From the NCBI GenBank assembly GCA_964518425.1, contig CAZFGG010000004.1, forward strand, positions 5,701 to 69,700: DNA of 64,000 bases, written 5' to 3'. Shown in pieces: positions 42,257-64,000 of the stretch; positions within the stretch are counted from its first letter, which is position 1, and every line of letters starts with the position of its first letter. A program made the translations under genes and the position numbers. The stretch is from an uncultured Gammaproteobacteria bacterium (GTDB taxonomy: Bacteria > Patescibacteriota > Patescibacteriia > SBBC01 > CAIJZX01). The notes under the pieces were generated by a model. That model was not told where the DNA came from. It made no database searches and saw nothing but the letters and a program-made list of their open reading frames with translations.

Positions 42257-42357
42257 TTGTTTTTTTCTTAATGATGAATGTTATGAATAGGCTAGCATGT
42301 TCACGCTAAAATGTCACGCCCGAAACAACCCCCGTTGGTGAGGGTTTGAATGACATG

Positions 42358-42525
42358 TGGCTCCGGGGGTCGGATTTACGACCCTGGGCAGCGGCGACTT
42401 GCCACTGGCAACTCGCCGGCCGCTCGAACTTCGCTTCGCTCGTTCTTGCTTCTGCCCTTCGAATCCGCCCAATCCAGATTGCGAAGACGGACGACACAAG
42501 GTCGTCCGCTTTCGCAATGGCTCCG
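42358..42525. other. GC-rich, stop-codon-free structured intergenic element (three strong hairpins, flanking 8-nt direct repeat) at the left edge of the GC-rich island
   Basis: Hairpins: 42367-42384 (GGGTCG-gattta-CGACCC); 42393-42417 (GGCGACTTGCCA-c-TGGCAACTCGCC); 42479-42517 (17-bp imperfect stem, loop acaag). 'tggctccg' occurs at 42358-65 and 42518-25. Six overlapping non-coding ORFs in the track reflect the absence of stop codons. Confidence 0.5.
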
Positions 42526-42649
42526 CCTCGTGGACGACGTCAGAACTTGGTTCCTGACGACCACAAAATATTTCAAGATTCCGGAGCTGGATCAGGTCAG
42601 TGCTCCACGCGATGCGCAGGCTGCCTAGGGGCCGAGCCGACGCTACGTG

Positions 42650-43081
42650 TCAGCCGTTGATCAGCGTGGACAACCAGACGAGGACGACCACGGTGATGAC
42701 GATGATGACGATGTTCGTCCGCATCTGACGGACGGCGAGCTTGTCGGTCTTCTTCGGATCGAGGAATTGCTCGAACTTGGCGATCGCCTCCGGGTCGCCA
42801 GTTGGGGCCAGTGTCCCGTCCGACCTGAGCGCAACCGTCAGCCTGAGGTTCCGGGCTGGTCGGCGGGGAAAGGCAAGGTAGATCAGCCCAGGGATCACGC
42901 CGAGGAGGAGCAGGATCGCAGCGACGAGGCAGCTCGCGCCGTCGGCGGGCACGGACCGCTCGTAGCGGATGAGGTCCGGCCGACGGTCGAGTAGGACCCA
43001 GCCCCTACCCCACTTCTCAGTGTTCATGAACTCTTCGAACTCGGCGAGGGCGTGGTTGGTGGCTGGTGGTGCGGTGGACAT
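42650..43081 (-). CDS. Hypothetical membrane protein
   Basis: Two TM segments ('LVAAILLLLGVIPGLIYLAF' and 'IVIIVITVVVLVWL'). GC-rich. Confidence 0.4.
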   Translation of the reverse strand: MSTAPPATNHALAEFEEFMNTEKWGRGWVLLDRRPDLIRYERSVPADGASCLVAAILLLLGVIPGLIYLAFPRRPARNLRLTVALRSDGTLAPTGDPEAIAKFEQFLDPKKTDKLAVRQMRTNIVIIVITVVVLVWLSTLING

Positions 43082-43133
43082 GCTGCAGGTGGTTAGTTGC
43101 ACCCGGCCAGCGAGGAGCTGGCGGGTTGAACAA

Positions 43134-43352
43134 TTAGAAGGCTCTCCTTCGAGCCCGCCGGCGGTTCAGGCGGGTCAGCTGGTCGACCTGCCACAGCCGC
43201 ACGGCGCGCTGGCGATCGCGGGTCTGGAGGTAGAAGCGGATCAGGCGGCCGGCCGAAATAATCTCGGGGAGAAGAAACACCTGGATGGTCAGGCCGGCAC
43301 CAGCACCCATGCCGGCCACGAAGAGCAGGAGCGCTGAGGTGTCGAGTGTCAT
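43134..43352 (-). CDS. Small hypothetical membrane protein
   Basis: 72 aa with one TM helix and an Arg-rich C-terminus. Confidence 0.35.
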   Translation of the reverse strand: MTLDTSALLLFVAGMGAGAGLTIQVFLLPEIISAGRLIRFYLQTRDRQRAVRLWQVDQLTRLNRRRARRRAF

Positions 43353-43372
43353 GGTACGTGGATCTGGCGAAA

Positions 43373-43930
43373 CTAGGTCTCGTGGCGGACTGGAGGCGTT
43401 GGTGGTGCCGCCCGGCGTGCCAGCTGCTCATCGAGCCACTCATCCCCCGCGCGCTTGATCGCCTCCATCTCGATCACCTCGCGCAGCACCTCCAAGCCCC
43501 GCGCGAGAAAGTCGGCCTTGCGCCGCTCGTGCAGTCCCTCTTTCACCACGGCACCCGCCAGGTCTTCCCGGGGCGCCGGCCACAGCATACGCAGGTCCGT
43601 GTGGTCGACGAGCTCCAGCACGTCACGCTTGTCGATTTGGGCGGTGTGAGGGAGAAGGTCGTACAGATCGCCGAGGCCACGGGTGTATTCGCGCAACACT
43701 TCGGTTCTCTTTCCTTCGGTGTCCCACTCGTCCTCTGGGCGATGCTCGCCCTCCCGCAAGCCGCGATCATCCGAACGGCCACCATGCTTGATCGCTTCGA
43801 CCTGATCGGCAGAGGGAACAACCTCGGCTTCCGGGCTCAGAGGCCTATCTGGGACAGCTTCAAGACCGGGTGATTCCGCGGTCGGGGGAATTATGGCTTC
43901 AGGAGGTGGGAACCCTTCACGTTCGGGCAT
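43373..43930 (-). CDS. Hypothetical protein
   Basis: 185 aa, acidic, no motif recognised. Confidence 0.35.
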   Translation of the reverse strand: MPEREGFPPPEAIIPPTAESPGLEAVPDRPLSPEAEVVPSADQVEAIKHGGRSDDRGLREGEHRPEDEWDTEGKRTEVLREYTRGLGDLYDLLPHTAQIDKRDVLELVDHTDLRMLWPAPREDLAGAVVKEGLHERRKADFLARGLEVLREVIEMEAIKRAGDEWLDEQLARRAAPPTPPVRHET

Positions 43931-44061
43931 AGCTGAAGTGTGCCACGATTATGGAAGGTTGCCTAGATCGGGCCCGTGCTCACTCAGCAGAGACCAAGGA
44001 GATCCGTCGCACCAACGAGCGCTACAGCCTTGAACTCATCGACCTGCCGGTCCGTCATCCC

Positions 44062-44592
44062 CTACTCATCGTCCAAGTACGCCTCCCCGGTCTGAATGCC
44101 CGAGATCGGCCCAGAGATGTCGAGCATCAGTTGGCCATCCGGCTGTCGCTTCCAACTCTTGATATAATCCGGCTTGAGCAAGTCGACCAGGCGTTCCATC
44201 TCGCGGTGATCAATGGCTCCCACCTCGCCCTGAATCGCCGGGTCACTTGGGTTGATGGGAGAACGCGATCCGCGGCGCATGACTCGCGTGATGTATTCCC
44301 AGAGCCGATCACGCTTCTTCTCCTCAGGTTCGGGAGAGAACGATGTGACTAGTCCTTCAAGCACCTCCTGCGTATATTTCATCTCTCGCGTTCGATAATG
44401 GATGATGAATGCGGCCAGCTGCTCCTTCGTCAAGTTCCTCGCAACGCTTCTGCCCGACGCGTCAATTTCCGCCGCGTGGCCGCGGCCAGTGCAGCGCGGG
44501 CACTCGAACTTCATCCACCCCGGGTTTGTTCCTCGGGACACCACAGCCTGATCTCCGCAAAGAGGGCACATTGGCACGCTTGACGCAGTCAC
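44062..44592 (-). CDS. Hypothetical zinc-ribbon protein
   Basis: N-terminal 'CPLCG...CPRC' four-Cys ribbon. Confidence 0.4.
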   Translation of the reverse strand: MTASSVPMCPLCGDQAVVSRGTNPGWMKFECPRCTGRGHAAEIDASGRSVARNLTKEQLAAFIIHYRTREMKYTQEVLEGLVTSFSPEPEEKKRDRLWEYITRVMRRGSRSPINPSDPAIQGEVGAIDHREMERLVDLLKPDYIKSWKRQPDGQLMLDISGPISGIQTGEAYLDDE

Positions 44593-44652
44593 TTCATGAC
44601 CTCCGCGTGTGAGCGCCGTTCTGGCAATGTACTCGATTGCTGAACAGGCTTT

Positions 44653-44919
44653 CTAAGTACGGAATCGCTGCGAACGCTTCCAACCCTCAAGCTTCCGCTT
44701 TAGCTGCCGCAAGTGCACCGGAAAAAGTATCATGATCTGAGCGAGACGCGCTCGGAGAGATCTTTCCGTGAGAGCCCACCGCCCGCGCCTAAGAAATGCC
44801 CTGAGAGCGTAAACGGTCGGGGCGCCGTCGACCAGGCCGTGCTCTCGCATGAACGATGTCAGATCTCGAGCAAAGGACTCAGCCTCGGCTTCTTCGACGA
44901 GCTGATGAGAGAGCGGCAT
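44653..44919 (-). CDS. Hypothetical small protein
   Basis: 88 aa, no motif. Confidence 0.3.
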   Translation of the reverse strand: MPLSHQLVEEAEAESFARDLTSFMREHGLVDGAPTVYALRAFLRRGRWALTERSLRARLAQIMILFPVHLRQLKRKLEGWKRSQRFRT

Positions 44920-44989
44920 CTCTTCTAGCAGGGGGCCTTCACAGCATTCGCCAGCCTGCTATACTGGCAGGCCCGATTATCCCCCCGCC

Positions 44990-46216: not shown

Positions 46217-46738
46217 GTGAACCAGAACGCGTCGGGTAGCACGGCCACGGTGCCAGCGGGCTGGATGACGTATAACTCCGCCAATGCCGACTTCGCTCAC
46301 ATACGCGCTTACGACCCTTCCATCACCGTGTCGTACCCAGCCGACTGGAAGGTTACGGAGGAGCTTGGTGGCATCTACCTGGCCGAGGATGGCATTGGCA
46401 ACTTAGAGCCGCAGGTCAACATCACCCGCTCGACCACAGTGATTCATGGGGACCCTCTCGAAGCCTGCAAGTCGCAAGTAAGGGGCATCATCGGCCGGAC
46501 TCCGGTGTTTGACGTCGCGAAGCCGATGACCGTTGACGGCATTGTAAGTGCCTACATCGATTATCACCTACCGTCAGACGTGGAGACGCACTCGTCCGAT
46601 CGCGACGGCGTGTTTGTGTGCGTCCCTCTCCCGAACGCCACCGATTCGCTCTGGGGTCGCCCCCTCTCCTCGGAGCTCGTGCGCCAGAACTTCGACACCA
46701 TCCTTTCCACGTACCGGCTACACGCCAAGGGTACGTAG
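46217..46738 (+). CDS. Hypothetical protein, probably membrane-anchored (N-terminus unresolved)
   Basis: GTG start at 46217. The in-frame upstream segment 46052-46216 encodes a TM-like 'SALAALVILLSAWYALLGV' but contains no canonical start codon. Confidence 0.35.
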   Translation: MNQNASGSTATVPAGWMTYNSANADFAHIRAYDPSITVSYPADWKVTEELGGIYLAEDGIGNLEPQVNITRSTTVIHGDPLEACKSQVRGIIGRTPVFDVAKPMTVDGIVSAYIDYHLPSDVETHSSDRDGVFVCVPLPNATDSLWGRPLSSELVRQNFDTILSTYRLHAKGT

Positions 46739-46873
46739 GCGGGGTGGTTTGGCCGACGTTGTCTACCTAAGACACGGCTGCACGTCTTCACCGCAGCAAC
46801 CCTCGGCCGCTCTTTGACAATTGGACGTGCGGATCCGTCCGTGCGCCCAAACACAACCCAAAGGAGGGTCGTC

Positions 46874-49189
46874 GTGAGACGGATGTGCTGTCTGTTTGTC
46901 GTGGGCGCGTCACTTTTCCTCAGTGTGCCGCGGTCCGCGCAGGCTACGTGCCCTGGAAACTGGGGTGATTCGCTCGCCACCTACCGCAGCGTGGTGGCCA
47001 ACTCGAACGGCACGGACGTTGGCTGTTCGAATGGCAGCAGCTCGTACGGGTACAAGTATCAGTGCGTTGAGTTCGTGAAGCGCTTCTACGGAGAGGCGAT
47101 GCACTTCTCGTCAACGCCCTGGTCAGGTGACGGTGTCGACTACTATGGCTCCGCTGCCACCAAGGGATTGCGGCAGTTTGCTGACGGCGGGTCGGTGAAG
47201 CCCAAGGAGAACGATATCCTCTGCTTCTCCGGCAACACCTTCGGGCATGTCGGCATCATCACCGAGGTAGGCTCCAACTACGTCAAGATGATCGACCAAA
47301 ATCGCACCACCTCTGGGGGATCAAACAATCCGAAGCAATTGACCCTGAGCGGCCCGAGCGGTGGGTGGTCTATCTCGAGTTTCAGTGGCTCGTACCCCGT
47401 CCAAGGCTGGCTCCGAGGCTACACTTCGGACTACAAGGATCAGACACCCAGCGGCACCGCAACCCTCACACCAGGGCAGGCGCTGTACTTCAAGGTCCGG
47501 TACACGAACACGAGTCACGCCAACGCGCCGCATTGGAAGAACGACGGCGGGAGTCAGTCCGTCGAGCTGCGGTCATGCACGAGCACGGGAGTCGAGACGA
47601 GTTCTTTCCTGTACCCCGTGAGCGGTCAGACCACATGGCTTGATCCAACCGATCGCAAGCGCATCGTGCACATGACGGAATCGGACGTAGGAGGAAACAC
47701 GGGAGTCGCCACGTTTGAGTTCTGGGCCAAGGTCCCTGAGTCCGCGACGCTGGGGACGCACAACGTCTACTTCCGCCCCTACCATCAGTCTGGTCAATGG
47801 ATTGAGGAATGGGACGGGATGTACTTCTCAATCAATGTTGTTGCCCCAATACCCGATCCGGCGTACGGATTGATCCTTCGGAATCCCTCAACCGCCGAGT
47901 GGTGGACGAGGGTGTCGAACGGCTTGGCCTTCGCCTACCCGCCTGGAGCCAACACGCCAGCTGACCTTTGGATCTCCGGATGGGCTCTTGACGACGGCAG
48001 CTACACCTTCACTCCTTACGTCGGTGACTTAAACGGCGACACCTACGACGACCTGGTCGTCGAACGCAGTGACTGCAAGTGGTACGTAGCTTGGAACAAC
48101 CAAGACGGATCATTCACCTCGCAAGGATCACCGATTCTTAACCCGTGGGCCACGTCGCCGTCCCCTGGCAAATATTTCTTCTGGTTCACCAACGTGACCG
48201 GAGATGCCAAGGACGAGCTCCTGACCTACGATGCCTCTAACGGCAACTGGTACGTCTGTACGTTCAACACCAGCACGAATACCTTCGACAACTGCAGCAC
48301 CTGGTTGACGTGGGGTGGTGGTGTCGGAACGTTTCAGCCACTCGCCGGAGATTGGAATGGCGACGGCAAGAGCGATATCTGCCTGCGCAATCCATCCACC
48401 GGCAACCACTACGTCCGGTTATCCTCTGGCACTGGCTTCTACCAGGGCACGAACGACAACTGGATCGGCTGGGGCGCGGGCAGCGAGTTCATCCCGATCG
48501 TCGGAGACTGGAACGGCGACGGCAAGGACGACCTGATGCTATGGAAAACGTCCACCGGCGAGTGGTTCGTCCGAACGTCAGATGGCACGGCCTTCGTCTA
48601 CCCCTCGGGAAGCAACTCTCCGGCCGACCGCTGGATGGTCTGGGGCGATCCGAGCTACACGCTCTTTACGGGCGACTTCAATGATGACGGCAAGGTCGAC
48701 GTTGGATTACGGAATCCAAGCACTGGCGACCACTGGGTTCGCACCTCGACTGGCCTCGCCTTCACCCAACCCTCACCAGACAACTGGTTGGCAGGGTGGG
48801 GCGGTAGTTCCTACCAGCTGCTGACCGGACGGTTTGGCAACGGGGAGCTGGGCGGTGGGTTCTCGTTGCAGCCAGCGCCTCCTGAAGATGATCAGCCACC
48901 TCCGGCGGTGCCTCTGTCGTTCAGGATTTGGGTGGCACCAAATCCAACCACGTCGAATGCTACAGTCAACTTCGCCTTGCCGACGTCTGATCGGGCCAGC
49001 ATCTCGATCTACGACGTCAGTGGTCGTGAGGTAGCTCAGTTCCCCGAGGAACCCTATGGCGTCGGCCAGCACACGCTTACGTGGAGCAGGACCAGCCCCC
49101 GTGGAGGACGGGTGGCGGACGGCATCTACTTCCTGACGTTTCGGTCGACACTTCACACGATCAGCAAGAAGATCATTGTTCTCAACTGA
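46874..49189 (+). CDS. Secreted CHAP-domain amidase/peptidase with FG-GAP repeats and a T9SS-type C-terminal sorting domain
   Basis: SD AAGGAGG 6 nt before the GTG at 46874. Signal peptide 'MRRMCCLFVVGASLFLSVPRSAQA'. CHAP domain 'YQCVEFVKRFY...FGHVGII'. At least 5 FG-GAP units ('GDWNGDGKSD', 'GDFNDDGKVD'). C-terminus 'VAPNPTTSNATVNFALP...ISIYDVSGREVAQ...ADGIYFLTF...KKIIVLN' matches the Por_Secre_tail pattern. Confidence 0.7.
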   Translation: MRRMCCLFVVGASLFLSVPRSAQATCPGNWGDSLATYRSVVANSNGTDVGCSNGSSSYGYKYQCVEFVKRFYGEAMHFSSTPWSGDGVDYYGSAATKGLRQFADGGSVKPKENDILCFSGNTFGHVGIITEVGSNYVKMIDQNRTTSGGSNNPKQLTLSGPSGGWSISSFSGSYPVQGWLRGYTSDYKDQTPSGTATLTPGQALYFKVRYTNTSHANAPHWKNDGGSQSVELRSCTSTGVETSSFLYPVSGQTTWLDPTDRKRIVHMTESDVGGNTGVATFEFWAKVPESATLGTHNVYFRPYHQSGQWIEEWDGMYFSINVVAPIPDPAYGLILRNPSTAEWWTRVSNGLAFAYPPGANTPADLWISGWALDDGSYTFTPYVGDLNGDTYDDLVVERSDCKWYVAWNNQDGSFTSQGSPILNPWATSPSPGKYFFWFTNVTGDAKDELLTYDASNGNWYVCTFNTSTNTFDNCSTWLTWGGGVGTFQPLAGDWNGDGKSDICLRNPSTGNHYVRLSSGTGFYQGTNDNWIGWGAGSEFIPIVGDWNGDGKDDLMLWKTSTGEWFVRTSDGTAFVYPSGSNSPADRWMVWGDPSYTLFTGDFNDDGKVDVGLRNPSTGDHWVRTSTGLAFTQPSPDNWLAGWGGSSYQLLTGRFGNGELGGGFSLQPAPPEDDQPPPAVPLSFRIWVAPNPTTSNATVNFALPTSDRASISIYDVSGREVAQFPEEPYGVGQHTLTWSRTSPRGGRVADGIYFLTFRSTLHTISKKIIVLN

Positions 49190-49196
49190 ACCAAGT

Positions 49197-49235
49197 CCTC
49201 CCCCCCTCTGTTTAAGAGGTGGGGGAGTTTTTTTT
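49197..49235 (+). terminator. Rho-independent terminator (CCTCCCCCCCTCT-gtttaa-GAGGTGGGGGAG + T8)
   Basis: Long GC stem then TTTTTTTT. It separates the plus-strand CHAP gene from the convergent minus-strand array. Confidence 0.8.
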
Positions 49236-49319
49236 GGCGGCTTCGTTTCCGGAACTGTGGGCCGGTTAGCGATAAGCGACGCTCTCAACCAGCTGCGCTC
49301 GAAGCATCGTTGAGCGGCT

Positions 49320-50254: not shown

Positions 50255-51259
50255 TCACCCCGTCTGGACAAGCTCGGCGTCAAACTCGGCACGAACCTCG
50301 GCCAGCGTGAGTGGCTCGCCCCAAAGGTTCCGCCGCGCCTCTTCGGGCAAGGACCAGAAAGCACCAAGCGTCTGATCGTCCCTGAAATGTTCGCGAAGCA
50401 CCCCGTCGGAGAAGATACGCCGCAGGCAGAAGCGAGCGACGGCCTGCACTTCGTGGGCGAGCTGCAGGATTCTGATGATCGCCTCTTGACGAACCGGCAT
50501 CGCAACCGATTCGAGGCGATCGTTCAAGTGCTCCACGGCGCTTCGAACGTTGAACAGCGCGCGTGCCCATTCGTGCTCCCTCGGACCCACAAATAATTCT
50601 GTGCGGCTTGCGAACTGCGCTTCCGTCTTACCTCGCTCCGGAAGGATGCAGCCTTCGATGGCACGCACAAACTCATGGATGCGCTCGGCAGGATCCTCGG
50701 CCTGCAGCCCGGCATAGAAGCACTTGACGGTCGCCCGCAGTCGACGAAAACCTTGAAGGTCTTGAACAGCTCCAAGCGCGTTGCCAAGCGTGGCCGCTTC
50801 TTCTAGCTCGGCCTGACGGATCGGATCCCAAAGCACACCTTGGTTCCGAAGGAGTACCGGGACCCAGCCGTGCTGCCGCACATCGACATCTGTTCCGTGT
50901 GCGCCAGTCAGCACAATGCCCCGGCCACCGGTTGCAATGCGTGGCGCCGCCAGCATGAGTCCGTAGTAGAGCATGAACGCCCGCGTTTGGAGCGCGGCGT
51001 TTTCTCCGTCCAGAAGATCCGGGGCGCTCGTCGGAGCTACTGCCCAGAGAAAAAGGCTCGCCTTGTGAAGCTCATCCCACCCGAGCGACCCAAGCCAGCC
51101 CTTCCAGTGGTCAGGCACACTCAGAGTGATGGCACGGGTCGCATGCAACCCATCGCCGAGCGCCAAGACCTCCGGCACCGACTCATCAACTCCAACCGCG
51201 AGCGCGATGAGCGCGTACTTATGTGCGGGTGGCGGTAGGTCAGGGGGTTTGTTGCTCAT
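50255..51259 (-). CDS. Hypothetical protein, possible HEPN-like (gene C)
   Basis: 'ALFNVRSAVEHLND' has Rx4H in a helical context. Otherwise unrecognised. Its start overlaps the gene B stop (ATGA). Confidence 0.35.
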   Translation of the reverse strand: MSNKPPDLPPPAHKYALIALAVGVDESVPEVLALGDGLHATRAITLSVPDHWKGWLGSLGWDELHKASLFLWAVAPTSAPDLLDGENAALQTRAFMLYYGLMLAAPRIATGGRGIVLTGAHGTDVDVRQHGWVPVLLRNQGVLWDPIRQAELEEAATLGNALGAVQDLQGFRRLRATVKCFYAGLQAEDPAERIHEFVRAIEGCILPERGKTEAQFASRTELFVGPREHEWARALFNVRSAVEHLNDRLESVAMPVRQEAIIRILQLAHEVQAVARFCLRRIFSDGVLREHFRDDQTLGAFWSLPEEARRNLWGEPLTLAEVRAEFDAELVQTG

Positions 51260-55740: not shown

Positions 55741-57003
55741 TTACACGCGGGGGCGTGCTTGTTTGCGCACTAGCTTCCGACCGTGAATCCGGTCGCGGCG
55801 GAACTTGAGTGCAGTCTGACGCACGGCGATCTCTGACTTCAACTTCGCTGCATCACGAGCCATTGAGAGAAATTGTCCGAGTTCTTCAAGATTTTCGAAC
55901 TTCCCGGAGAGCTGCATGGAAAACGTTAGGAGTTCGGCCACAAACCGATGGAGCTGCAAGGCAGCCTTGCGGGCATCGACACCACCCGTCCCGGAGTGCG
56001 CGGTGCCATTTCTCCGGTCACGAAGCATTTCCAAGACGTACCAGATCAGGGGTTCGTCCTCGTAAAGAAACCGGACTCGCTGGATCGTGGCGTCATAGCG
56101 ATCGCCGCCAGTAGCGGTCAGTGTTTCCAGCAGCGACCACAGCTGCAGAACCGTGACTTCGTGATCGACGCCATCCAAAGCCCGACAGTATCGGACCATG
56201 ATCCTTCGCAACTCTCGTCCGAGCGTTGTTTCCTTGATGGCGGCCCGGATGGCCGCGACCTGCTCAGCCATCCCCTGCCACTTTCCACTTAGATCGACAG
56301 AGAAGGAGTCCTTCACTGGGAAGAGCTCGTACCACCACACCTCTCCCGCTGGCTTTCCGTTCGGGAGATGCAGCGTGTGAATCGGGCCGATCCGGACTTG
56401 ATTGATCGGGACATTTTCGCGAGGGCCGAACTGACTCCACACCCGCCGGTTGAGAACGAAGTTCCAGATCCCTCGGACAAAATCTAGTCGCTCCAAACCG
56501 GCATCGAGCGCTTCGTTAATTGTCCGCGCGCGACCACTTACTCTGACGTGCGCCAGTCGAAGATGCTGCTCGCCGTACTCAGCCCACACATGCTCTGGCA
56601 CGTAGCTTCGATCGAAGCCCTTGGGCGGACCATCAGAAAAGGTCATGGTCCAACCGTCGAAGACCTGGCGAGTGAGTTTCGGGAAGTACCGGCACGATAG
56701 CGATGCCACGAGCACGAATGGCAGCTGTGGCTGAGCAAGGAAGCGGCGTGATCGACGGTCAAGCTCAGCCAGCAGGCGTGCTTTCGTAATGGCACCGGAC
56801 CCGGCGACCGTGGAAATAGCTTCCTGACAGAGGCCGAGCCGATCACGTTCCGACGTGGCCTCATCAAGCGGAGCGTGCACACTGAGTGAAGCGACGAGTT
56901 CATCGAACCAGGTTGAGTCAAACCCACCTGACGGCTTCTTGGCTCGCTCGAGTTCCTTGGCCACAATCTCCACGTCAACGATGCTCTTCAAATCGCGAGG
57001 CAT
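55741..57003 (-). CDS. HEPN (Abi_C / Swt1-like, RNxxAH) domain protein
   Basis: C-terminal 'YVLEMLRDRRNGTAHSGTGG' has R-N-x-x-A-H. The N-terminal ~300 aa are unrecognised. It lies 10 nt downstream of the HerA-like NTPase gene. Confidence 0.55.
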   Translation of the reverse strand: MPRDLKSIVDVEIVAKELERAKKPSGGFDSTWFDELVASLSVHAPLDEATSERDRLGLCQEAISTVAGSGAITKARLLAELDRRSRRFLAQPQLPFVLVASLSCRYFPKLTRQVFDGWTMTFSDGPPKGFDRSYVPEHVWAEYGEQHLRLAHVRVSGRARTINEALDAGLERLDFVRGIWNFVLNRRVWSQFGPRENVPINQVRIGPIHTLHLPNGKPAGEVWWYELFPVKDSFSVDLSGKWQGMAEQVAAIRAAIKETTLGRELRRIMVRYCRALDGVDHEVTVLQLWSLLETLTATGGDRYDATIQRVRFLYEDEPLIWYVLEMLRDRRNGTAHSGTGGVDARKAALQLHRFVAELLTFSMQLSGKFENLEELGQFLSMARDAAKLKSEIAVRQTALKFRRDRIHGRKLVRKQARPRV

Positions 57004-57013: not shown

Positions 57014-60000
57014 TCATCCCTTCTTCTTTAGGCGGCGAAGGGCCTTAGCAATCACGGCCGACACCGCTCCATGCTTGGCTTCCTGTTCCTCGGCTTGCCC
57101 GGGACGGCGACGGACGCGGACGCGGTAACCGCGCACCGTCGACTCCTCGGCTGGTTGGAGCGAGTGCAGTCCACCGAGAAGATCAAGGACTTCCTCCGGG
57201 CTGACGAGGTGCACGCGCTCAAACTGTTCCGGGGTGAGCGCAGCCTTGGCCAGGGTGCGGATATGCCCGAGGCGACGCTTTTCCCCAGAAACTATCACCA
57301 CGAAGGAGAATCCTGCGGCCACACACTTCTGAAGATTTTGCGCCTCGTGCTCAGCCGGGGAGCTGACGACAATTTCGCAGGCGACCGACGTTCCATTCTT
57401 TCGAAGCGCAACATCCACACTCCCCAACCCATCGAGTACCGCTTCCTCGATCGTTGCGCCCCAGCCGTTCGCGAGTGCCCAGCGTCGAATGAGGTCTTGG
57501 AGGTACTTGTGCTGCGCACCGCCTCGTCCGGCCGTGGACGGAAGTGTCGCCGAATCGACGACCGAAGTGGTTGCCGCCACCGGTGGCAACGGTGAGCTGA
57601 CCGGAACGGGCCTCGCGTGTCGCGGTGAGGACGCTGGTGTCGGTTCCTCGACAGCTGCCGCCGGTGCATCTGCCTCCCGCCCGGACCGGATGATCGCTTC
57701 AATCTCGGCTCTGGGCCGGGCGTACTGCTCCCGTGATGCGGCAACAACCTTCGCCCGATTAGTTTCGGCGACTGCCTCGTCGAGAGCCGACAAGAGCGGA
57801 GTGCGAAGGTTGAAATCCCAATCGGCTCGTTCCACCCGGGCAATAGCTTCACCGGTGCCGAGATTCTGGAGGTCGTCAGCGTTGAAGCTGGAGAAGCCCT
57901 TCGCCAGAAGCCGAGCATCCTCGTCACCGACTCTGAAGGAGACACGCGTGGCTGGATTGGCGAGGACGGAGGCCAGCACGTCGCCACTGCGACTCTGGAG
58001 CTGTCGCAAGTCCTGGTGAGCAAGCACCAGTGCCAAGCCATACTTTCGAGCGCCGGAGAGAATCTGCGCCATCGAGGGGGTAACGAAGTGGTGGAATTCG
58101 TCGATGTAAAGGTAGAAGGGCCGGCGCTTCCCTTCGGCTACGTCTTGTCGGCTCATCGCCACCTGATGGAGCTTGGAGACGAGCAACGTCCCAAGCAGAT
58201 GTGCGTTTTCCTCGCCAATCGCCCCGTGCGAGAGCCGACAAAGAAGGATCTTTCCCTCGTCCATGACTCGCCGCAGGTCAAGCCGGCTATCTTGCTGGGC
58301 CACCATGTACCGGATCGGCTTTGGGCGAAGGAAGGAGTCGAGGCGCGTCAGAATCGGGGCCTGCGGTCGGCCACGCAGCAGCGGAAATTCTCGCTCCCAA
58401 AAATAAATGACGTCCGGGTCGCGAACGGTCTTGAGGAATTCCTTCCGGAATCGATCTTCGACCAGGAACCGCCGCAGGTCCACCAGCGTGCCGCCCTGCT
58501 CGCTTTCAACGAAGGCCAGCACGGCGTTCCCGAGCACGGACGTCATCTGGTCGCCCCAGCTCATGGACATGCGCTGGAACACCATCACGAGGTCTGATGA
58601 CAGGAGCGTTTTCTCGAGATCCGAGGCGGCCGAGAGGATGTTGAAGCCGATCGGGAACTCGGCATCTGCCGGGTCGAGCAAGATGACGTCTTGAAGACGG
58701 CCCTCAGGAACAAGGCCCAGAACGCGATCAATCAGATCGCCGTGAGGATCGAAGACGGCGAGGCCTTCGCCGTTCTCAAGGTCTTGTCGGATGAGATTCA
58801 GCAAGAGCGTAGACTTCCCAGTGCCGGATGCTCCGATGACGTACATGTGTCGCGATCGGTGATCGGCGGAGAGCCTGACCTCGTCCACCTGATCATCGTG
58901 GACGTTCTGTCCAAGGCAAACACCTTGGCTCAGGACGGACGGGGGTGCGGCCTTTGTCTTGTGTCCATGCCGCAGCAACCGCGGGTCGCGAACGCCACTG
59001 GTCGGCAGGTGCACGAGCGAGGCGAGCTCCTCGACACTCAGGAGCATGCCGCTGCGATGTGAGCGCCGGCCGAGGAGATCATCCTCGTGCTGCTGGGACG
59101 AGTAGTCACCGTCTGGCTGCAGCGGGATGAGTTCATTTGCGAGTGGATCGCTCAGGGCTCCCATGGCACCGGCCACCTGGCGTGCCACCGCTATCGCCCG
59201 CCCACGCGTTGGGCTCTTGATCCCGACCCGAATGACGCTGGCGAACAGCGGGCGCGCCACCTTCGCCTTGGCGAGGGCGGAGATCTCCGGCGCATCGATA
59301 AAAAACGGAGACCCCTGTTCGTCCAGAACCGCGCGCAATATTTCGCGTGCCCAAGGCTGGCGCGCTCGGCAGGCTAGTACCTGGAAGAGCCCTGCCTCAC
59401 CAGCCCGCAGATTGGAGAGTGCACCCACCACCCCAGCCAGCGGATCGACGTCAAATTTTCTTACCGCACGGAGGGGTACCATGAACTCGTGGGCCAAGCC
59501 GAAGTCCACTACGACGGCTTCACCGCCGAGCGCGTCCCACCTCGGGGCCACGGCTTCACGTCCCCGAGAAACGAGGATTTCGGGAAAGTAGGCCTTCAGG
59601 CATTGCGACAGAACCGGCTCGTCTTCGGCTGAACACGTGAACAACAGCCGGGTCGATTCTTCGGCTCCGAACAGCTCAAAGGCAATCGGGCCAATGGCGG
59701 TAGGAAGAGCGAGAAGGAACTGCTCGGCGGCCTCGCGAGAAACATCGAGATCCGGCGGCACAGCAACAAGCAGCTGTGCGATCTCTTCGTGCCCGCGCCA
59801 CCGACCAGGTGTCGGCTCGTCGAAACTGCTGTCTTCACTCGCCTCGGTCGGCCTGCCTCCAGATGTGCCGACGAGCCGATCCGTCAGACGACTTAAGAGT
59901 GTCGGGCGGCGACCATCATCGAGTCTGTCCGGTGACGTCGCGATCTGCGGAAAATAAAATGGCCTGAACGGCGGCTCAAGTTCGACCGGCTCTGGCCATA

Positions 60001-60067
60001 GCTGCCAACCGCGGCCTCGTCTTTCCCAGGCGTAGAAGTGATCAGTCAGCGACTCGATCGAAGACAC
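57014..60067 (-). CDS. HerA/FtsK-superfamily P-loop NTPase (DUF87/TraD-like core) with large N-terminal and C-terminal extensions
   Basis: Walker A 'VIGASGTGKSTLL', 'LAVFDPHGDLID', Walker B 'FYLYIDEFHHF', 'LALVLAHQDLRQL' (TraG-D_C-like). C-terminal 'SVDVALRKNGTSVACEIVVS' is restriction-endonuclease-like. 1017 aa. Confidence 0.65.
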   Translation of the reverse strand: MSSIESLTDHFYAWERRGRGWQLWPEPVELEPPFRPFYFPQIATSPDRLDDGRRPTLLSRLTDRLVGTSGGRPTEASEDSSFDEPTPGRWRGHEEIAQLLVAVPPDLDVSREAAEQFLLALPTAIGPIAFELFGAEESTRLLFTCSAEDEPVLSQCLKAYFPEILVSRGREAVAPRWDALGGEAVVVDFGLAHEFMVPLRAVRKFDVDPLAGVVGALSNLRAGEAGLFQVLACRARQPWAREILRAVLDEQGSPFFIDAPEISALAKAKVARPLFASVIRVGIKSPTRGRAIAVARQVAGAMGALSDPLANELIPLQPDGDYSSQQHEDDLLGRRSHRSGMLLSVEELASLVHLPTSGVRDPRLLRHGHKTKAAPPSVLSQGVCLGQNVHDDQVDEVRLSADHRSRHMYVIGASGTGKSTLLLNLIRQDLENGEGLAVFDPHGDLIDRVLGLVPEGRLQDVILLDPADAEFPIGFNILSAASDLEKTLLSSDLVMVFQRMSMSWGDQMTSVLGNAVLAFVESEQGGTLVDLRRFLVEDRFRKEFLKTVRDPDVIYFWEREFPLLRGRPQAPILTRLDSFLRPKPIRYMVAQQDSRLDLRRVMDEGKILLCRLSHGAIGEENAHLLGTLLVSKLHQVAMSRQDVAEGKRRPFYLYIDEFHHFVTPSMAQILSGARKYGLALVLAHQDLRQLQSRSGDVLASVLANPATRVSFRVGDEDARLLAKGFSSFNADDLQNLGTGEAIARVERADWDFNLRTPLLSALDEAVAETNRAKVVAASREQYARPRAEIEAIIRSGREADAPAAAVEEPTPASSPRHARPVPVSSPLPPVAATTSVVDSATLPSTAGRGGAQHKYLQDLIRRWALANGWGATIEEAVLDGLGSVDVALRKNGTSVACEIVVSSPAEHEAQNLQKCVAAGFSFVVIVSGEKRRLGHIRTLAKAALTPEQFERVHLVSPEEVLDLLGGLHSLQPAEESTVRGYRVRVRRRPGQAEEQEAKHGAVSAVIAKALRRLKKKG

Positions 60068-60082
60068 GGGCGTCCCTTGCTT

Positions 60083-60772
60083 TCAGCACGGCTTGAGGCC
60101 AAGAGCACAAACTACCTTCCAAGGATCCGGTTCGATCCTGGCGGTGCGCTTGAACCCACCACCCCTCCACCAGAGACATTTGTCGAGCGCCCGGATCGGA
60201 GACTTCGGTTCGACCTCGCCCATCCAGCGTGGATCCTCATCGCTGAGTTTTCTTGTGTTCCGAAACTCATGCCTCACAATTTCGCGATAGGCCGAGTCGG
60301 CGGGGCGTGTGTCGACGATCCCCAGCGCCGTACGTACGTAACTGTCGTAGACGGGAATTCGCCAAGGCATGAGCCAATGAAGCGTCTTCGAAGCCAGGGA
60401 CAGTTCGTATCGTCCCGCTCCACCTTCGAGCAGGTTGTCAGCGAACTGCTCGACTTGCTCGACGGCAAAACGCTCGCCCGCAGGATCAAATCGGTCGGCG
60501 AAGTGGGCCTCGGTCCACGACTGGCGAACGAGTGCGCTGGCTCCGACGGTGTCAATGTCAGCTCGGGAATACTGGATGCCCCACCACTCCTTGATCGTGC
60601 GGATAAGCGCAACGACTACAGGGGTGTCCTTGCCGAGCAAGAGATCCGATCGAGCGTATCGGGCGAGACACCACAACACGCGGTCCATCTCGCCCCATAG
60701 CCCATTAAACGTCTCGACATCCTTTTGGATTTCGGGAGCGCTGAGGATCGCGGCCAAAGGACCCCTCGCCAT
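60083..60772 (-). CDS. Hypothetical protein
   Basis: 229 aa, no motif. Confidence 0.35.
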   Translation of the reverse strand: MARGPLAAILSAPEIQKDVETFNGLWGEMDRVLWCLARYARSDLLLGKDTPVVVALIRTIKEWWGIQYSRADIDTVGASALVRQSWTEAHFADRFDPAGERFAVEQVEQFADNLLEGGAGRYELSLASKTLHWLMPWRIPVYDSYVRTALGIVDTRPADSAYREIVRHEFRNTRKLSDEDPRWMGEVEPKSPIRALDKCLWWRGGGFKRTARIEPDPWKVVCALGLKPC

Positions 60773-60858
60773 TGCGGTAGTTCTTTGAGGCCGGGAGGCG
60801 CCAACACCTGATCGCCCGCTTGGGCGTAATCAGAGCAGCGATTCGTTCGAGCCGCGGC

Positions 60859-61221
60859 TTATGGGCTCCACGCGACCGATCGCGGGTGCTTGGCTCCTGC
60901 GCCAATGAACCAGCCCTTGCGCTTCAGGGCGCGGCGAACTCGTCTGAGCCACGGCGACCATAGGCCGACGACAAGCAGCACGATTCCCAGTCCGGCGAGG
61001 ACCCAAGTCAGCACCCAGCGCACATCCGGCGTGAGCGCGGCCTGAGAAAGCTGCGCCGCAAGTGGGTTCGGCATGCTCAACGCGACCGCTAAGCCGCCGA
61101 GCATCAGGACGCGTTCGACTCGCGCCACCGCTGCCCGCAGACCAACCCAAAGGAGCATCACCAACCCCGTGAGGGGCACGAGGACGCACCATAGGAGCGT
61201 CCCAAGGAGTCGTCGTCTCAT
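60859..61221 (-). CDS. Small hypothetical membrane protein
   Basis: Three TM helices. Preferred over the overlapping frame 60830..61240, which has a low-complexity R/G/A-rich translation. Confidence 0.4.
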   Translation of the reverse strand: MRRRLLGTLLWCVLVPLTGLVMLLWVGLRAAVARVERVLMLGGLAVALSMPNPLAAQLSQAALTPDVRWVLTWVLAGLGIVLLVVGLWSPWLRRVRRALKRKGWFIGAGAKHPRSVAWSP

Positions 61222-61272
61222 ACGTTTGACGGTTAATCATGAGCTAACGCTCCCGGCCACATTCTTGAACGT

Positions 61273-62082
61273 TTAGGTCGACTGCGCCGTCGCACCGACC
61301 ATCATGGGTTCCAGCTTCCGAGTCGTCCGGCCGTCAAGCAACTCACGCATGATCGGCTTCCGCTCGTCTTCCTGCAGGGCGCGCATACCCTTGGCGGTCA
61401 TCAGCCCATCGATGCATTCCTGTACCGCCGCGTGGATTGCCGAGCGGAACATGATGGCCGTGTCGAGTCGGTAGTAGGTCACCGGGGCAAACAGCCACCG
61501 ATAGATCCCGCCAACGATCGGAATGGCGAGCATCGCGTTTTCAGCGTTTACACGCCCGAGACGAGCAGCCAGCGCGACCAAAGCCATGACAGCCCAGGGC
61601 GACAGGCCCCAGACAATCAGGAAGAACGGAAGCGACGTGGAAGGGCTGTTGAAGAGGTGTACTCCGAACATCGACGGCCTCCACCAGAGCACGCGAATGT
61701 TCGACAATGCAGACGGGAACATCTTCAACACGAACCAGATGGACTTGGCGAGCAGCCAGGTGGCTGCTACGAAGACGGCTGCCCACGCCGGTACCCACGA
61801 AGCCGGTTTTTTCACGAGCCACCAAGAGAAGAAGAAGCCGGTCCCGAATGGCGCTGCGCACAGGTCAAAAGCGACACGCCCGTCGGTCATGCGGAGGTAC
61901 TCACGCTTTGGCGAGAGCGCACCACCCTCGTTCCAAATGATTCGATGGGTCTTCAGGCCGGGAATGCGGCGGTGAGCGAGGGCGGATTGGACCGAGGAGT
62001 AAAACTCTTTCGACGAGGTTTCAAAATTTTCGATCAGCTTGTTCCAGTTCGACAGGACATCATCCAGCGGGTGCTTTGCCAT
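61273..62082 (-). CDS. Hypothetical membrane protein
   Basis: 269 aa with several TM helices ('FFFSWWLVKKPASWVPAWAAVFVAATWLLAKSIWFVL'). Confidence 0.4.
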   Translation of the reverse strand: MAKHPLDDVLSNWNKLIENFETSSKEFYSSVQSALAHRRIPGLKTHRIIWNEGGALSPKREYLRMTDGRVAFDLCAAPFGTGFFFSWWLVKKPASWVPAWAAVFVAATWLLAKSIWFVLKMFPSALSNIRVLWWRPSMFGVHLFNSPSTSLPFFLIVWGLSPWAVMALVALAARLGRVNAENAMLAIPIVGGIYRWLFAPVTYYRLDTAIMFRSAIHAAVQECIDGLMTAKGMRALQEDERKPIMRELLDGRTTRKLEPMMVGATAQST

Positions 62083-62231
62083 GACTGCCTCCTGCTGACG
62101 GTTCGTCCTGTCCTTTCGTCCGGACCGTCACGGCCAAGCAGGGCCCCGTCATGGGGCTGAGGTGTCCGACAACGCCGCCGAAGCTACCGCAAGTTGGCGA
62201 CAAATGAAATGGCCTGAAGCGATGGGCGCTG

Positions 62232-64000
62232 TTACGCCGCCGGCTGATAGAGGAACTTCTGGAACCCGGCGAAAACTCGGCCAATTTCCTCCGGTTCGCC
62301 GAGGTCGGTCACCGCGTCATTGATGGAGTCGTGGTACTTGAGCCGCAGCAGCGGCGTCAACTTCGACTGGTCAAGCTCCTCCACGCCCACGGTCACGTAG
62401 TGCGAGAGCACGAAGTCCAGAAACGCCTGCTGCTTCGCGGTGAAGTGAGCCGCGATCTCCACCTTGGCTTTCAGTGCTCGCGCTTCGCGCGTGACGGGAG
62501 CGAACGCGTAGGCGACATAAGCCAACACGTCGAACAGGTCGCTTTTCTCCGCGTCGATAATTTTCTGCATCTCCGCGAGCTGTTCCCGTCCAAAACCACG
62601 TTCGGCCAAGCCCTGTAGCAGTCTTGCGCGCGTATCCGGCGCGCTCCAGATGGCTCGCAGTTCGGCTTCATCCCTGAAGAACTCAGGTAGTTTACCGAAG
62701 AGCGTTTCCATGAACTGCTGTGCTGACATCGGCGTGCCGTCTGGATGCCAGAACGTCGTGACCATCATGTGCTGGATGTTGCGCGCCTTGCCGTCAGCGA
62801 GCTTGACCTTGACCTTCGTGCGCGGCGGCACTGGATCCGGCGCTGGTCCTGGCGTGGGCGGAGGCGATAGCGGACCCGGCCCGGGCGAGACAGGTTTCGG
62901 TTCCGGCTCGACAGGCTCGCCATCCCACTCTCGATCACTGAAGTGGTGGTACGCCTTCACGAAATCGTAAATCGTGAAGTAGTCCTTTCCATCGTAGAGG
63001 CGCGTGCCTCGCCCGATGATCTGCTTGAACTCGATCATCGAGTTGATTGGACGCATCAGGACGATGTTGCGAACGTTGCGCGCGTCCACACCGGTCGAGA
63101 GTTTCTGGGAGGTCGTGAGGATGGTTGGCACGAGCTTCTCGTTGTCCTGGAAGTCGCGCAGGTGCTGGTCACCGAGCGCTCCGTCATTGGCCGTGACCCG
63201 GTGGCAGTAGTTCGGGTCCTTGCTCGACTTTATCTGGTTGATCAGATCACGAACCGCAAGGGCGTGATCCTGAGTGGCGCAAAACACGAGCGTTTTGTCG
63301 TTCTGGTTGATCTGGTCCATAAATATTTTGACCCGATGCGCCTCGCGCTCCTTGATCTCGATGATCTTGTTGAACTCGGTCTCCGTGTACACCTTGCCGC
63401 TCTCGACCTCTCCTTCCACGAGCTGGTCATCCGGCGTGTAGACGTACTCGTCGAGCGTGGTCGAGATCTGCTTCACTTTGAACGGGGTCAGGAAACCGTC
63501 GTTGATCCCGTCCTTGAGCGAGTAGATGTAGACCGGGTCGCCGAAGTAGGCGTAGGTGTCGACGTTGTCCTGTCGCTTCGGTGTGGCGGTCATGCCGAGC
63601 TGCACGGCGGGCGCGAAGTAGGTCAGGATGTCGCGCCAGTTGCTTTCGTCGTTGGCGCCTCCGCGGTGGCACTCGTCGATGACGATGAAGTCGAAGAAGT
63701 CCGGTGGGTACTCGCCGAAGTACGGACTGGGCTTGCCGTCCTTGGGCGGCCCGCTCATGAAGGTCTGAAAGATCGTGAAGAAGATGCTGCCGTTCTTCGG
63801 GACCCTGCCCTTCTTCCGGATGTCGCTCGGAGCTATGCGCACGAGCGCATCCTCAGGAAATGATGAGAAGGCGTTGTATGCCTGGTCGGCGAGGATGTTG
63901 CGATCCGCCAGGAAAAGAATGCGCGGACGCCGCGTCGGCTCGCCACTCAGGTTCCATCGCGAGTGAAACAGTTTCCACGCGATCTGAAACGCAATGAAGG
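62232..64000 (-). CDS. hsdR: Type I restriction enzyme R subunit (HsdR), C-terminal ~590 aa; N-terminal part beyond the window edge
   Basis: Helicase motif II 'FVIDECHRG', motif III 'GMTATP', 'YFGDPVYIYSLKDGINDGFLTPF', and an HsdR-specific C-terminal domain ('LFDVLAYVAYAFAPVTREARA'). The reading frame stays open to position 64000. Confidence 0.85.
   Translation of the reverse strand, partial: FIAFQIAWKLFHSRWNLSGEPTRRPRILFLADRNILADQAYNAFSSFPEDALVRIAPSDIRKKGRVPKNGSIFFTIFQTFMSGPPKDGKPSPYFGEYPPDFFDFIVIDECHRGGANDESNWRDILTYFAPAVQLGMTATPKRQDNVDTYAYFGDPVYIYSLKDGINDGFLTPFKVKQISTTLDEYVYTPDDQLVEGEVESGKVYTETEFNKIIEIKEREAHRVKIFMDQINQNDKTLVFCATQDHALAVRDLINQIKSSKDPNYCHRVTANDGALGDQHLRDFQDNEKLVPTILTTSQKLSTGVDARNVRNIVLMRPINSMIEFKQIIGRGTRLYDGKDYFTIYDFVKAYHHFSDREWDGEPVEPEPKPVSPGPGPLSPPPTPGPAPDPVPPRTKVKVKLADGKARNIQHMMVTTFWHPDGTPMSAQQFMETLFGKLPEFFRDEAELRAIWSAPDTRARLLQGLAERGFGREQLAEMQKIIDAEKSDLFDVLAYVAYAFAPVTREARALKAKVEIAAHFTAKQQAFLDFVLSHYVTVGVEELDQSKLTPLLRLKYHDSINDAVTDLGEPEEIGRVFAGFQKFLYQPAA

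Follow-up and report, generated by a model that had tools for sequence, protein, structure and literature searches.

A probable composite island at a tRNA-Asn site in a Patescibacteria chromosome, with a nested element whose recombinase gene contains an attP-like palindrome

Genomic and defence islands associated with tRNA genes are well known, for example those at the asn tRNA genes of enterobacteria; gene flow in Patescibacteria (the candidate phyla radiation, CPR) is little known, and defence systems in this group are thought to be sparse. Here, we describe a GC-rich region in a 64,000-nucleotide stretch of contig CAZFGG010000004.1 (hereafter, the window), which extends from approximately position 42,358 to at least 64,000 and is probably a composite, horizontally acquired island in a CPR chromosome, located at a tRNA-Asn site downstream of dnaG-rpoD and containing a nested passenger element. 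As in the tRNA-associated islands described previously, the window shows a sharp compositional shift, defence cargo, a copy of a tRNA 3′ end at the boundary, and a locus that varies among relatives. In contrast to the enterobacterial islands, the window shows one end only and contains neither the expected integrase nor the intact tRNA, the host belongs to the CPR, and the tRNA fragment is inverted relative to the rpoD-tRNA-Asn arrangement of the clade. A defence island at a tRNA hotspot is a genuine feature of an ordinary kind; the part that deserves notice is a putative attachment site (attP) located inside a gene.

For the nested element, which encodes a large serine recombinase (LSR), two phage systems provide the comparison. 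In the sr1WO prophages of phage WO of Wolbachia, an LSR is located at one prophage end, with HTH_XRE (helix-turn-helix, HTH) regulator genes at the other, and inserts into a Mg-chelatase(-like) gene (PMC9203015), as relatives of the window recombinase do into comM. The HTH part of the window recombinase also presented a weak NCBIfam match to the WO Wmk family. The window element differs from phage WO in that its HTH domains are in frame with the recombinase across attP, and in that it is not a phage: it contains no structural genes, it has no relatives in IMG/VR, and phage records contain no full-length relatives of its ATPase. A phage origin was rejected, there being no IMG/VR relatives and the similarity in phage and plasmid records being confined to the ATPase core.

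In mycobacteriophage BPs and its relatives, immunity depends on integration and attP is located inside a regulator gene (PMC4557955). The window element likewise has its putative attP in a regulatory (HTH) gene, such that integration would alter the gene product and couple its state to integration. However, BPs encodes a tyrosine integrase and interrupts a separate repressor, whereas the part interrupted in the window element would be the C-terminal HTH extension of the serine recombinase itself. A limited literature search found no description of an attP that lies in frame where a serine recombinase joins an HTH extension of its own, in combination with a TrwB-like ATPase.

The composition shift and its tRNA-Asn boundary

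The left 42 kb of the window is Patescibacteria housekeeping DNA, in agreement with the original prediction, and encodes YchF, FolD, GlyA, Lgt, a GlmM-like mutase, a TyrS/TrpS-type synthetase, RNase J, UvrC, UvrA, GroEL, PpsA, DnaG, and RpoD. The best matches for the window RpoD among 185,579 species genomes were Patescibacteria/Kerfeldbacteria metagenome-assembled genomes (MAGs), with 82% identity in a genome scan (best segment) and approximately 90% identity over 356–360 residues by tblastn. Many of the best RpoD matches are third-party annotation (TPA) MAGs titled “uncultured Gammaproteobacteria bacterium”, yet they cluster with Patescibacteria records; these titles look like placeholders or errors.

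The single best GC change point of the window (maximum likelihood) was found at 42,360, with a GC content of 0.530 to the left and 0.607 to the right; a 2-kb sliding profile showed 50–57% GC until approximately 42 kb and then 59–62% through the window end at 64,000. Segmentation with a third-order Markov model, trained away from the junction, placed the switch at 42,378, and, when 1-kb blocks were scored with this model, all left blocks were left-like and all right blocks were right-like. Tetranucleotide profiles of the two sides were correlated with r = 0.70, as compared to 0.86–0.97 for 4-kb chunks and their own side. GC content at third codon positions (GC3) ranged from 0.54 to 0.64 (mean 0.589) for genes on the left and from 0.63 to 0.84 (mean 0.721) for genes on the right, with almost non-overlapping distributions; the raised GC3 was common to all 17 right-side genes, which have unrelated functions. 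The GC rise after approximately 42.3 kb that had been claimed for this region is thus real and sharp, the recalculated composition not being uniform, and the claim that the right end is not in the window also holds, as GC stays high to base 64,000. The proteins encoded on the right side had been described as rich in Arg and Ala; Arg indeed increases from 5.7% to 8.2%, while Ala barely does (8.6% to 9.4%), and Lys, Ile, and Asn are lower on the right. Both composition and codon usage deviate as expected of a horizontally acquired island. In the left flank, a surface-protein gene (40925–42256) has a local GC content of 58–63% at 41,300–41,800, before the boundary; this stretch was only weakly right-like in the Markov test.

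The change in composition coincides with a 19-nt fragment of the 3′ end of tRNA-Asn(GTT) (Table 1), which is located no more than 20 nt from both change points. One related locus (L040) has a tRNA-Asn(GTT) gene whose final 19 nt are exactly this 19-mer. Compared with the tRNAs of the clade, it matches 31 of 62 tRNA-Asn genes at 16 or more of its 19 positions and other tRNAs at 15 at most. The window contains a single copy, where 0.04 copies would be expected by chance even with three mismatches allowed. The fragment was recognised only through comparison with relatives; searches of the junction with ARAGORN and against Rfam (at the gathering threshold and with E ≤ 10 on 400 nt) detected no tRNA, tmRNA, or known RNA. 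We propose this 19-mer as a putative att-type repeat at the left edge of the island.

The tRNA-Asn fragment is adjoined by a conserved non-coding block of 85 nt, which was the sole, and unexpected, match when the right side was compared with all fetched loci at the nucleotide level (89% identity, E = 5e-23, with positions 9177–9261 of L082) and which has no Rfam match. In L082, a 507-kb JGI contig, this block is flanked by tRNA-Gln(ttg) on one side and, on the other, by a 19-nt direct repeat that copies the tRNA-Gln 3′ end exactly, a layout that reads as the classic scar of a tRNA-integrating element, and is 740 bp from a 66% homologue of the left-flank gene of the window. The block therefore probably represents the terminal sequence of a tRNA-integrating element. 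Its 11-bp hairpin (42396–42420; GGCGACTTGCC ACT GGCAACTCGCC) differs from L082 at one pair by a compensatory change (C-G to T-A). It may correspond to a small RNA, to a terminator, or to a site of protein binding. A comparison with empty sites through homologues of the left-flank gene was abandoned, as neither L082 nor L173 is syntenic; L082 yielded the conserved block instead.

A survey of 80 related rpoD loci (L002–L081) found dnaG-rpoD-tRNA-Asn(GTT) to be a conserved arrangement. A tRNA-Asn gene was present in 56 of these loci and was located downstream of rpoD, on the same strand, in 50, at a distance from rpoD of 500 bp or less in 27 and of 1.5 kb or less in 42. Five loci contained two tRNA-Asn copies, six contained short direct repeats of the tRNA-Asn 3′ end, and serine recombinase genes were found right beside tRNA-Asn in L052 and L016. 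In the closest relative (L002), tRNA-Asn is followed by a compositionally foreign type I restriction-modification (RM) island with 42–50% GC, as compared to approximately 60% in the core. Judging from these gene arrangements, insertions recur across the clade of related Patescibacteria at the tRNA-Asn site downstream of rpoD, a hotspot that gives mobile DNA in this group a concrete point of entry. The low-GC (36–50%) island of L002, at positions 11900–21203, encodes an ImmA/IrrE-like peptidase, an EcoAI-type HsdR (38% identical to the window HsdR), HsdM, two unknown proteins, and HsdS; its compositional shift is opposite in direction to that of the window.

Except for generic recombinase and hsdR hits, the right-side genes have no homologues in the 80 related rpoD loci; the island genes are not found downstream of rpoD in these loci, and relatives carry other islands at tRNA-Asn. 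By this gene content, the locus is a variable one, with the island absent from close relatives. The horizontally acquired island of the original prediction is hence supported by a boundary at a tRNA-Asn fragment, by a hotspot in the clade, and by the occurrence of the 85-nt block in the scar of L082. Because a tRNA-Asn fragment lies at the change point, and because relatives carry RM systems, recombinases, and att-like scars beside tRNA-Asn, we consider it quite probable that the join at 42.3 kb is a genuine island boundary rather than a misassembly. The island would have been inserted by an integrase targeting the 3′ end of the tRNA; this integrase, as well as an intact tRNA-Asn, would be located at the far end of the island, beyond the window, and an inversion is assumed to have placed the tRNA-Asn fragment on the minus strand. 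No integrase was found at an island edge within the window; the sole recombinase gene of 42.3–64 kb is in the middle of an operon, and the far edge is outside the window. This recombinase was tried as the marker of the island edge, or as the maker of the 42.3-kb boundary, and was rejected in both roles, as no half-site is present at the boundary and the gene, mid-operon, contains an intact attP.

A nested element with an attP-like site inside its recombinase gene

A second mobile element appears to be nested in the island, consisting of genes for a membrane protein, a 229-aa protein, a TrwB-like ATPase, and the LSR, with variable defence cargo between and after them. The order membrane protein, (small protein), ATPase, (variable cargo), recombinase is kept in L083, L084, L103, L112, L163, L166, and L172. 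Homologues of the 269-aa membrane protein (39–47% identity) are encoded directly upstream of the ATPase in L083, L084, L103, L163, L166, L091, and L172; the 229-aa protein is a core member in the closest subclade, with a 64% identical homologue at the same position in L172. The slot between the ATPase and the recombinase, which encodes a 420-aa protein in the window, contains different genes in relatives. With more than 5,600 homologues of the recombinase and more than 4,000 homologues of the ATPase (approximately 1,030 aa), these loci expose a very large uncharacterised family of elements with a fixed core, varied defence cargo, and comM as target.

The serine recombinase named in the original prediction is present, with Pfam matches to Resolvase (3.7e-32), Recombinase (5e-19), and, twice, HTH_3, and a match to the integrase family phrog_95 (3.5e-113); the combination of a Resolvase catalytic domain and a Recombinase domain is that of an LSR element. 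Just before its two HTH_3 domains, the open reading frame (ORF) contains the palindrome listed in Table 1. Neither arm shows a mismatch (0 mismatches) to a degenerate pattern, and the two differ at its R position (A/G; ...AACGCAAC versus ...AACACAAC). An imperfect palindrome of approximately 40–50 bp with a central crossover dinucleotide is the form of an attP, and the site conforms to it in sequence. The crossover dinucleotide would be CA at the dyad centre. In L165, which encodes the closest recombinase (91% amino acid identity) and is integrated in comM, identity with the window ends at ..AACTTCA; the CA shared by the two therefore lies at the exact dyad centre.

Elsewhere among bacteria, members of this recombinase family integrate into comM, which encodes a Mg-chelatase-like protein, at the ..AAMNP|C.. 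codons. Residues 1–505 of the window recombinase are up to 91% identical to short recombinases of comM-integrated elements, and tblastn matches of 80 metagenomic homologues nearly all end at residue 498–505, which is the palindrome site. In 48 related loci, what follows this site is comM sequence in the opposite orientation, namely the 5′ part of the gene (Mg_chelatase and ChlI, E = 1e-74), which always ends in ..AAMNP, and the left palindrome arm is kept as a half-site. Thirty of the 80 contigs end within 260 bp after the site, as against eight whose start falls no more than 260 bp ahead of the gene (p = 5e-4); such an excess of contig ends is what population heterogeneity at an insertion boundary would produce. 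Approximately 23 contigs of L085–L164 end 40–120 bp past the att site, near typical assembler k-mer lengths, which points to many samples containing strains both with and without the element. The 3′ part of comM, or a second att site, was not found within the 10-kb flanks of integrated relatives; the comM C-terminus motif used for this may be wrong.

Fifteen loci, including the window, keep both arms and show in-frame read-through into the HTH domains, with the fusion in frame across elements that are only 52–61% identical. Among 14 intact sites, the arms covary, with 77.9% of positions paired as compared to 35–48% in slid controls, and with 13 double-change pairs as compared to 0 of 500 shuffles. 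The window contains no comM and no half-site of the palindrome elsewhere, and neither an attL nor an attR was found; the window copy is in the attP (unintegrated) configuration. Given the intact palindrome and the fused recombinase-HTH ORF, the inner element would not have been integrated by its own recombinase and would ride as a passenger in the island; this fused, intact-attP state and the tRNA-type boundary together fit a passenger in a composite island.

Integration at an attP within the recombinase frame would cut off the C-terminal HTH domains, and excision would rejoin them. Because integration is expected to split the fusion, a separate HTH ORF is expected in integrated elements; in L107, the far end of the integrated element, 6.8 kb upstream of the recombinase, indeed contains the right arm (P′ half-site) and a 142-aa HTH ORF, both on the recombinase strand. 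The same locus presents approximately 60-bp inverted copies of a comM fragment with a P half-site at both element ends (3140–3195 and 11440–11500); its left end contains a degenerate comM-like piece (RFMLIAVA) instead of the expected 3′ half of comM, an arrangement that a simple single integration does not explain.

Where hosts are named, the short, comM-integrated forms belong to Eisenbacteria, Acidobacteriota, or Bryobacteraceae, and the long recombinase-HTH forms to Patescibacteria. The window recombinase is mixed in this respect, its catalytic part being nearest to the short forms (up to 91%), although its HTH domains are fused and its attP is intact. Several long contigs with a Kerfeldbacteria or Patescibacteria label carry recombinase-HTH elements in which the palindrome is intact (L084, 302 kb; L166, 206 kb; L091/L168; size span 143–302 kb), and the L166 element lies in a GC-richer island within a lower-GC flank. 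In L084, a Kerfeldbacteria contig, three consecutive tyrosine-recombinase genes (305–3464) are located beside the hsdR-hsdM-element cluster; these may be the vehicle that carries the intact-attP element there.

A tentative extension, which we hold to be possible but doubtful, is that the recombinase gene acts as the element's own integration sensor: integration into comM would split the regulator from the enzyme and excision would fuse them again, giving two protein states tied to location. Under the same reading, the CPR elements suggest a passenger lineage, one without a usable comM site, which would persist by travelling in tRNA-targeted islands and would bring its tiny episymbiont hosts genes for defence and for secreted proteins active on the wall; this part of the idea was formed because the intact-palindrome copies sit stably in long contigs, several of them labelled Patescibacteria. 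An attP within a recombinase-HTH frame would make a simple built-in switch, comparable to the integration-dependent immunity of mycobacteriophages, and the defined attP/attB pair makes this enzyme a possible recombinase tool.

The ATPase core matches Pfam TrwB_AAD_bind (4e-14), PADLOC mad8 (7.5e-24), phrog_5156 (1.3e-55), and, in a phmmer search, TrwB (5.5e-7). An AlphaFold2 model (pLDDT 82) presented TrwB as the best Foldseek match (E = 1.6e-11, TM 0.63), followed by HerA and VirB4; the protein had been called a HerA-like NTPase, and is better described as TrwB/VirD4-like. It shares its fold and Walker motifs with TrwB of R388 (PDB 1gl6/1e9r) and the HerA/VirB4 clade. However, unlike TrwB-type coupling proteins, it lacks N-terminal transmembrane helices and has an additional N-terminal domain of approximately 370 aa, which is DUF8128 in homologues, as well as a nuclease-like C-terminal domain. 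The latter, at residues 850–970, contains an alpha-beta-beta-beta-alpha-beta unit with invariant E874, D885, and E898, and we infer from this unit and these residues that it is PD-(D/E)xK-like. Judging by its fold, the ATPase most likely pumps or processes element DNA. Unlike genes for type IV coupling proteins, the ATPase gene has no relaxase, VirB4, or other type IV secretion system (T4SS) genes near it; scans of the island proteins against Pfam, NCBIfam, and PHROG found no match to a relaxase, VirB4, Rep, or other T4SS component, and the element does not present the coupling protein plus relaxase and/or mating-pair genes of a conjugative or mobilisable element. Although its core matches mad8 of the MADS defence system, no other mad gene was matched among ten neighbouring proteins, and the locus is not MADS. 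A Sulfitobacter plasmid (L170, NZ_CP081110, 4125–8179) encodes a 395-aa TrwB-like “T4SS DNA-binding” protein 1.3 kb from a 515-aa recombinase-family protein, which may be a reduced relative of the ATPase-recombinase pairing.

Alternative explanations

The original prediction had allowed for a chimeric join; a CPR fragment (1–42.4 kb) would then have been assembled with DNA of a GC-richer organism, or with a free circular recombinase element, from the same sample. This is now a minority view, which we regard as unlikely. A chimera would account for a shift in GC, GC3, and tetranucleotides that is abrupt and lasting, and an excised circle would likewise contain an intact attP. In addition, the nearest relatives with named hosts are from non-CPR phyla (Eisenbacteria, Acidobacteriota, Bryobacteraceae; 65–76% identity for recombinase short forms and 53–56% for the ATPase), the second att copy and the integrase were not found in the window, and no independent assembly of the junction was found, window proteins being matched exactly on one NCBI contig only and look-ups with exact proteins adding no more than a 1.3-kb Logan contig for RpoD. 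However, the junction is a bare 19-nt tRNA-Asn 3′ fragment without a 5′ half, whereas a join mediated by a tRNA would leave a full-length hybrid tRNA, and it is located at an insertion hotspot of the clade. The next 85 nt are shared with a CPR-like contig (L082), beside a homologous flank gene, and the window contains no N's. Moreover, recombinase-HTH elements that have an intact attP and are GC-richer than their flanks are found inside long Patescibacteria-labelled contigs; the gene arrangement of one such contig is present in both JGI and Logan records from different run accessions.

The strongest argument for a chimera came from the type IX secretion system (T9SS)-type tail of a 791-aa CHAP protein encoded in the island, as neither an outer membrane nor a T9SS is expected in Patescibacteria. 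This argument falls away because related CPR contigs encode such tails: the tail of the window protein (Por_Secre_tail, 32.3 bits versus a cut-off of 27) is similar to tails in L166, L004, and L172, and a tail of this type is also part of an NHL protein that L004 (a relative with an RpoD identity of 77%) encodes 4 kb from rpoD. In the Patescibacteria-labelled L166/L167, a protein with a T9SS-type tail adjoins the homologous recombinase element. The tail was accordingly dropped as a sign of non-CPR origin, such tails being present in L004, L166, and L168, and a T9SS-type tail is not a safe contamination marker in CPR bins. Proteins with Por_Secre_tail or FlgD_ig-like domains are encoded at 14920–16965 in L004, 14546–15796 in L166, 17908–20421 in L168, and 46814–49189 in the window; a T9SS-type tail protein is located beside the recombinase element in four annotated loci.

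Some of the evidence also weighs directly against a composite island. The intact attP and the non-CPR names of the nearest relatives have been mentioned above, the former being equally expected of a free circular element. One end of the island carries an exact 19-nt copy of the tRNA-Asn 3′ end, and the partner end would be beyond the window; the second repeat copy, an intact tRNA-Asn after rpoD, and a tRNA-type integrase were all not found within the window, such that the att reading concerns one end only. Direct and inverted repeat searches over 41.8–64 kb found, other than the palindrome of the recombinase gene, chance-level families only, and within the window the GC-rich region is not flanked by a repeat pair. 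The fragment is on the minus strand, while the tRNA-Asn of relatives is on the rpoD strand, which requires an inversion to be assumed; the conserved block accompanies tRNA-Gln in L082 and tRNA-Asn in the window; and no relative with conserved synteny presented a clean empty site. Finally, the split-HTH model has one direct example (L107), the outer flank of which is unexplained. With these points included, a composite island with a nested passenger element is still the explanation that we consider probable.

A second alternative, less likely again, concerns the palindrome, which could be an operator or an RNA hairpin that regulates a normal recombinase-HTH fusion, the region having been inserted by the recombinase elsewhere. 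In favour of this, an intact palindrome is kept by 15 recombinase-HTH loci that lie inside long contigs, elements with only 52–61% identity share the in-frame fusion, and such a dyad could be bound by HTH domains. However, comM homology starts exactly at the dyad centre in 48 loci, with the left arm kept as a half-site, and L107 contains the right arm and an HTH ORF at the opposite end of an integrated element. In the window, there is no other half-site, so that the recombinase did not make the 42.36-kb boundary, and that boundary bears a tRNA-type repeat instead. It is most improbable that the region is native CPR core DNA with a composition that differs for functional reasons (gene content, expression level), since, although the left-flank surface-protein gene has a local stretch of 60% GC at 41.3–41.8 kb and Gly-rich NHL and FG-GAP repeat proteins are GC-rich in relatives, raised GC3 is found in all 17 right-side genes of unrelated function, the 80 related rpoD loci contain no homologues of these genes, generic matches to recombinases and hsdR aside, and their content is that of a mobile element with defence genes.

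Cargo genes and other features of the island

Table 1. Features of the window and of the proposed comM target site, with window coordinates.
Feature	Coordinates	Strand	Remarks
rpoD region	36665–37882		Compared with related rpoD loci L002–L081
19-nt tRNA-Asn(GTT) 3′-end fragment	42358–42376	-	Reads AATCCGACCCCCGGAGCCA on the minus strand
Conserved non-coding 85-nt block with 11-bp hairpin	42383–42466	.	Adjoins the tRNA-Asn fragment; strand unassigned
150-aa protein with hydrophobic segments	42650–43102	-	No Pfam match; GC3 0.84; start codon uncertain (ORF not an exact match in the protein collection)
185-aa hypothetical protein	43373–43930	-	ORF equals the collection gene call exactly; no Pfam match
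176-aa protein, N-terminal zinc-ribbon-like CxxC pair	44062–44592	-	Weak Pfam match below cut-off (Lar_restr_allev, 17.8 bits)
88-aa hypothetical protein	44653–44919	-	ORF equals the collection gene call; no Pfam match
Family 2 glycosyltransferase, 328 aa	44990–45976	+	Pfam Glycos_transf_2, E = 4.4e-17; promoter-like site at 44938–44965
173-aa hypothetical protein	46217–46738	+	No Pfam match
Secreted 791-aa CHAP peptidoglycan-hydrolase protein with FG-GAP repeats and T9SS-type C-terminal sorting domain	46814–49189	+	
AbiJ-like/STM4504-family HEPN protein, 300 aa	49320–50222	-	Last gene of the minus-strand operon
334-aa protein, RSAVEH (Rx4H) motif	50255–51259	-	Possible HEPN; motif read from the translation
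393-aa protein	51256–52437	-	4-bp start/stop overlaps with neighbours; no family match (Pfam, PADLOC, NCBIfam, PHROG)
PDC-S54 candidate defence protein, 444 aa	52434–53768	-	C-terminal PD-(D/E)xK-like D...ExK motif
LSR fused in frame to two HTH_3 domains, 663 aa	53743–55734	-	
Intact attP-like palindrome inside the recombinase ORF	54214–54255	.	18-nt arms 54214–54231 and 54238–54255, spacer TTCACT; strand unassigned
420-aa cargo protein, RNGTAH (Rx4H) motif	55741–57003	-	Between ATPase and recombinase; possible HEPN
1017-aa ATPase	57014–60067	-	N-terminal domain, TrwB/VirD4-like core, disordered linker, C-terminal PD-(D/E)xK-like domain
229-aa DUF6308-like protein	60083–60772	-	Pfam DUF6308, 6.7e-4, below cut-off
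269-aa membrane protein	61273–62082	-	First gene of the conserved element core
HsdR, EcoAI-family type I restriction subunit	62232–64000	-	C-terminal ~590 residues in window; ORF continues past 64000
Proposed comM attB site			..ATGAAYCCNTGYCC.. at the ..AAMNP|C.. codons
comM target sequence			..ATGAAYCCNTGYCCNTGYGG..

The predicted cargo of the island consists largely of anti-phage defence genes. A tightly packed minus-strand operon runs from 60772 to 49320 and is preceded by the membrane-protein gene and an EcoAI-family hsdR. The latter matches NCBIfam restrict_EcoAI (1e-163) and PADLOC REase_I (1.9e-88), and neither a stop nor a frameshift interrupts its frame before the window ends; the gene had been described as a partial hsdR, and it is present, but not truncated, as the ORF simply runs off the end of the window. 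HsdR is the only type I RM subunit encoded here; hsdM and hsdS are not located within 42.3–64 kb and could lie beyond the window.

Three HEPN proteins had been proposed, one of which is backed by family models. This AbiJ-like protein matches Pfam DUF7014 (5.6e-12) and Abi_C (5e-4), PADLOC AbiJ (1e-4), phrog_20794 (1.5e-24), and NCBIfam STM4504_CBY0614 (4e-29, below that model's cut-off). The other two, of 334 and 420 aa, have the Rx4H motif only; the 334-aa protein presented no match in Pfam, PADLOC, NCBIfam, PHROG, or PDB, and the 420-aa protein presented no match in Pfam, PADLOC, NCBIfam, or PHROG and only a marginal one in a PDB search.

The PD-(D/E)xK protein of the original prediction corresponds to PADLOC PDC-S54 (PDLC05036), which it matches end to end (E = 1.8e-150, 407 of 410 profile positions covered); PDC-S54 is itself a predicted defence candidate only. 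The CHAP protein with a T9SS tail was likewise found as described, with CHAP (1.3e-11), FG-GAP_3 (1.9e-14), and Por_Secre_tail all matched in Pfam. Its gene is followed by a terminator-like hairpin at 49205–49225.

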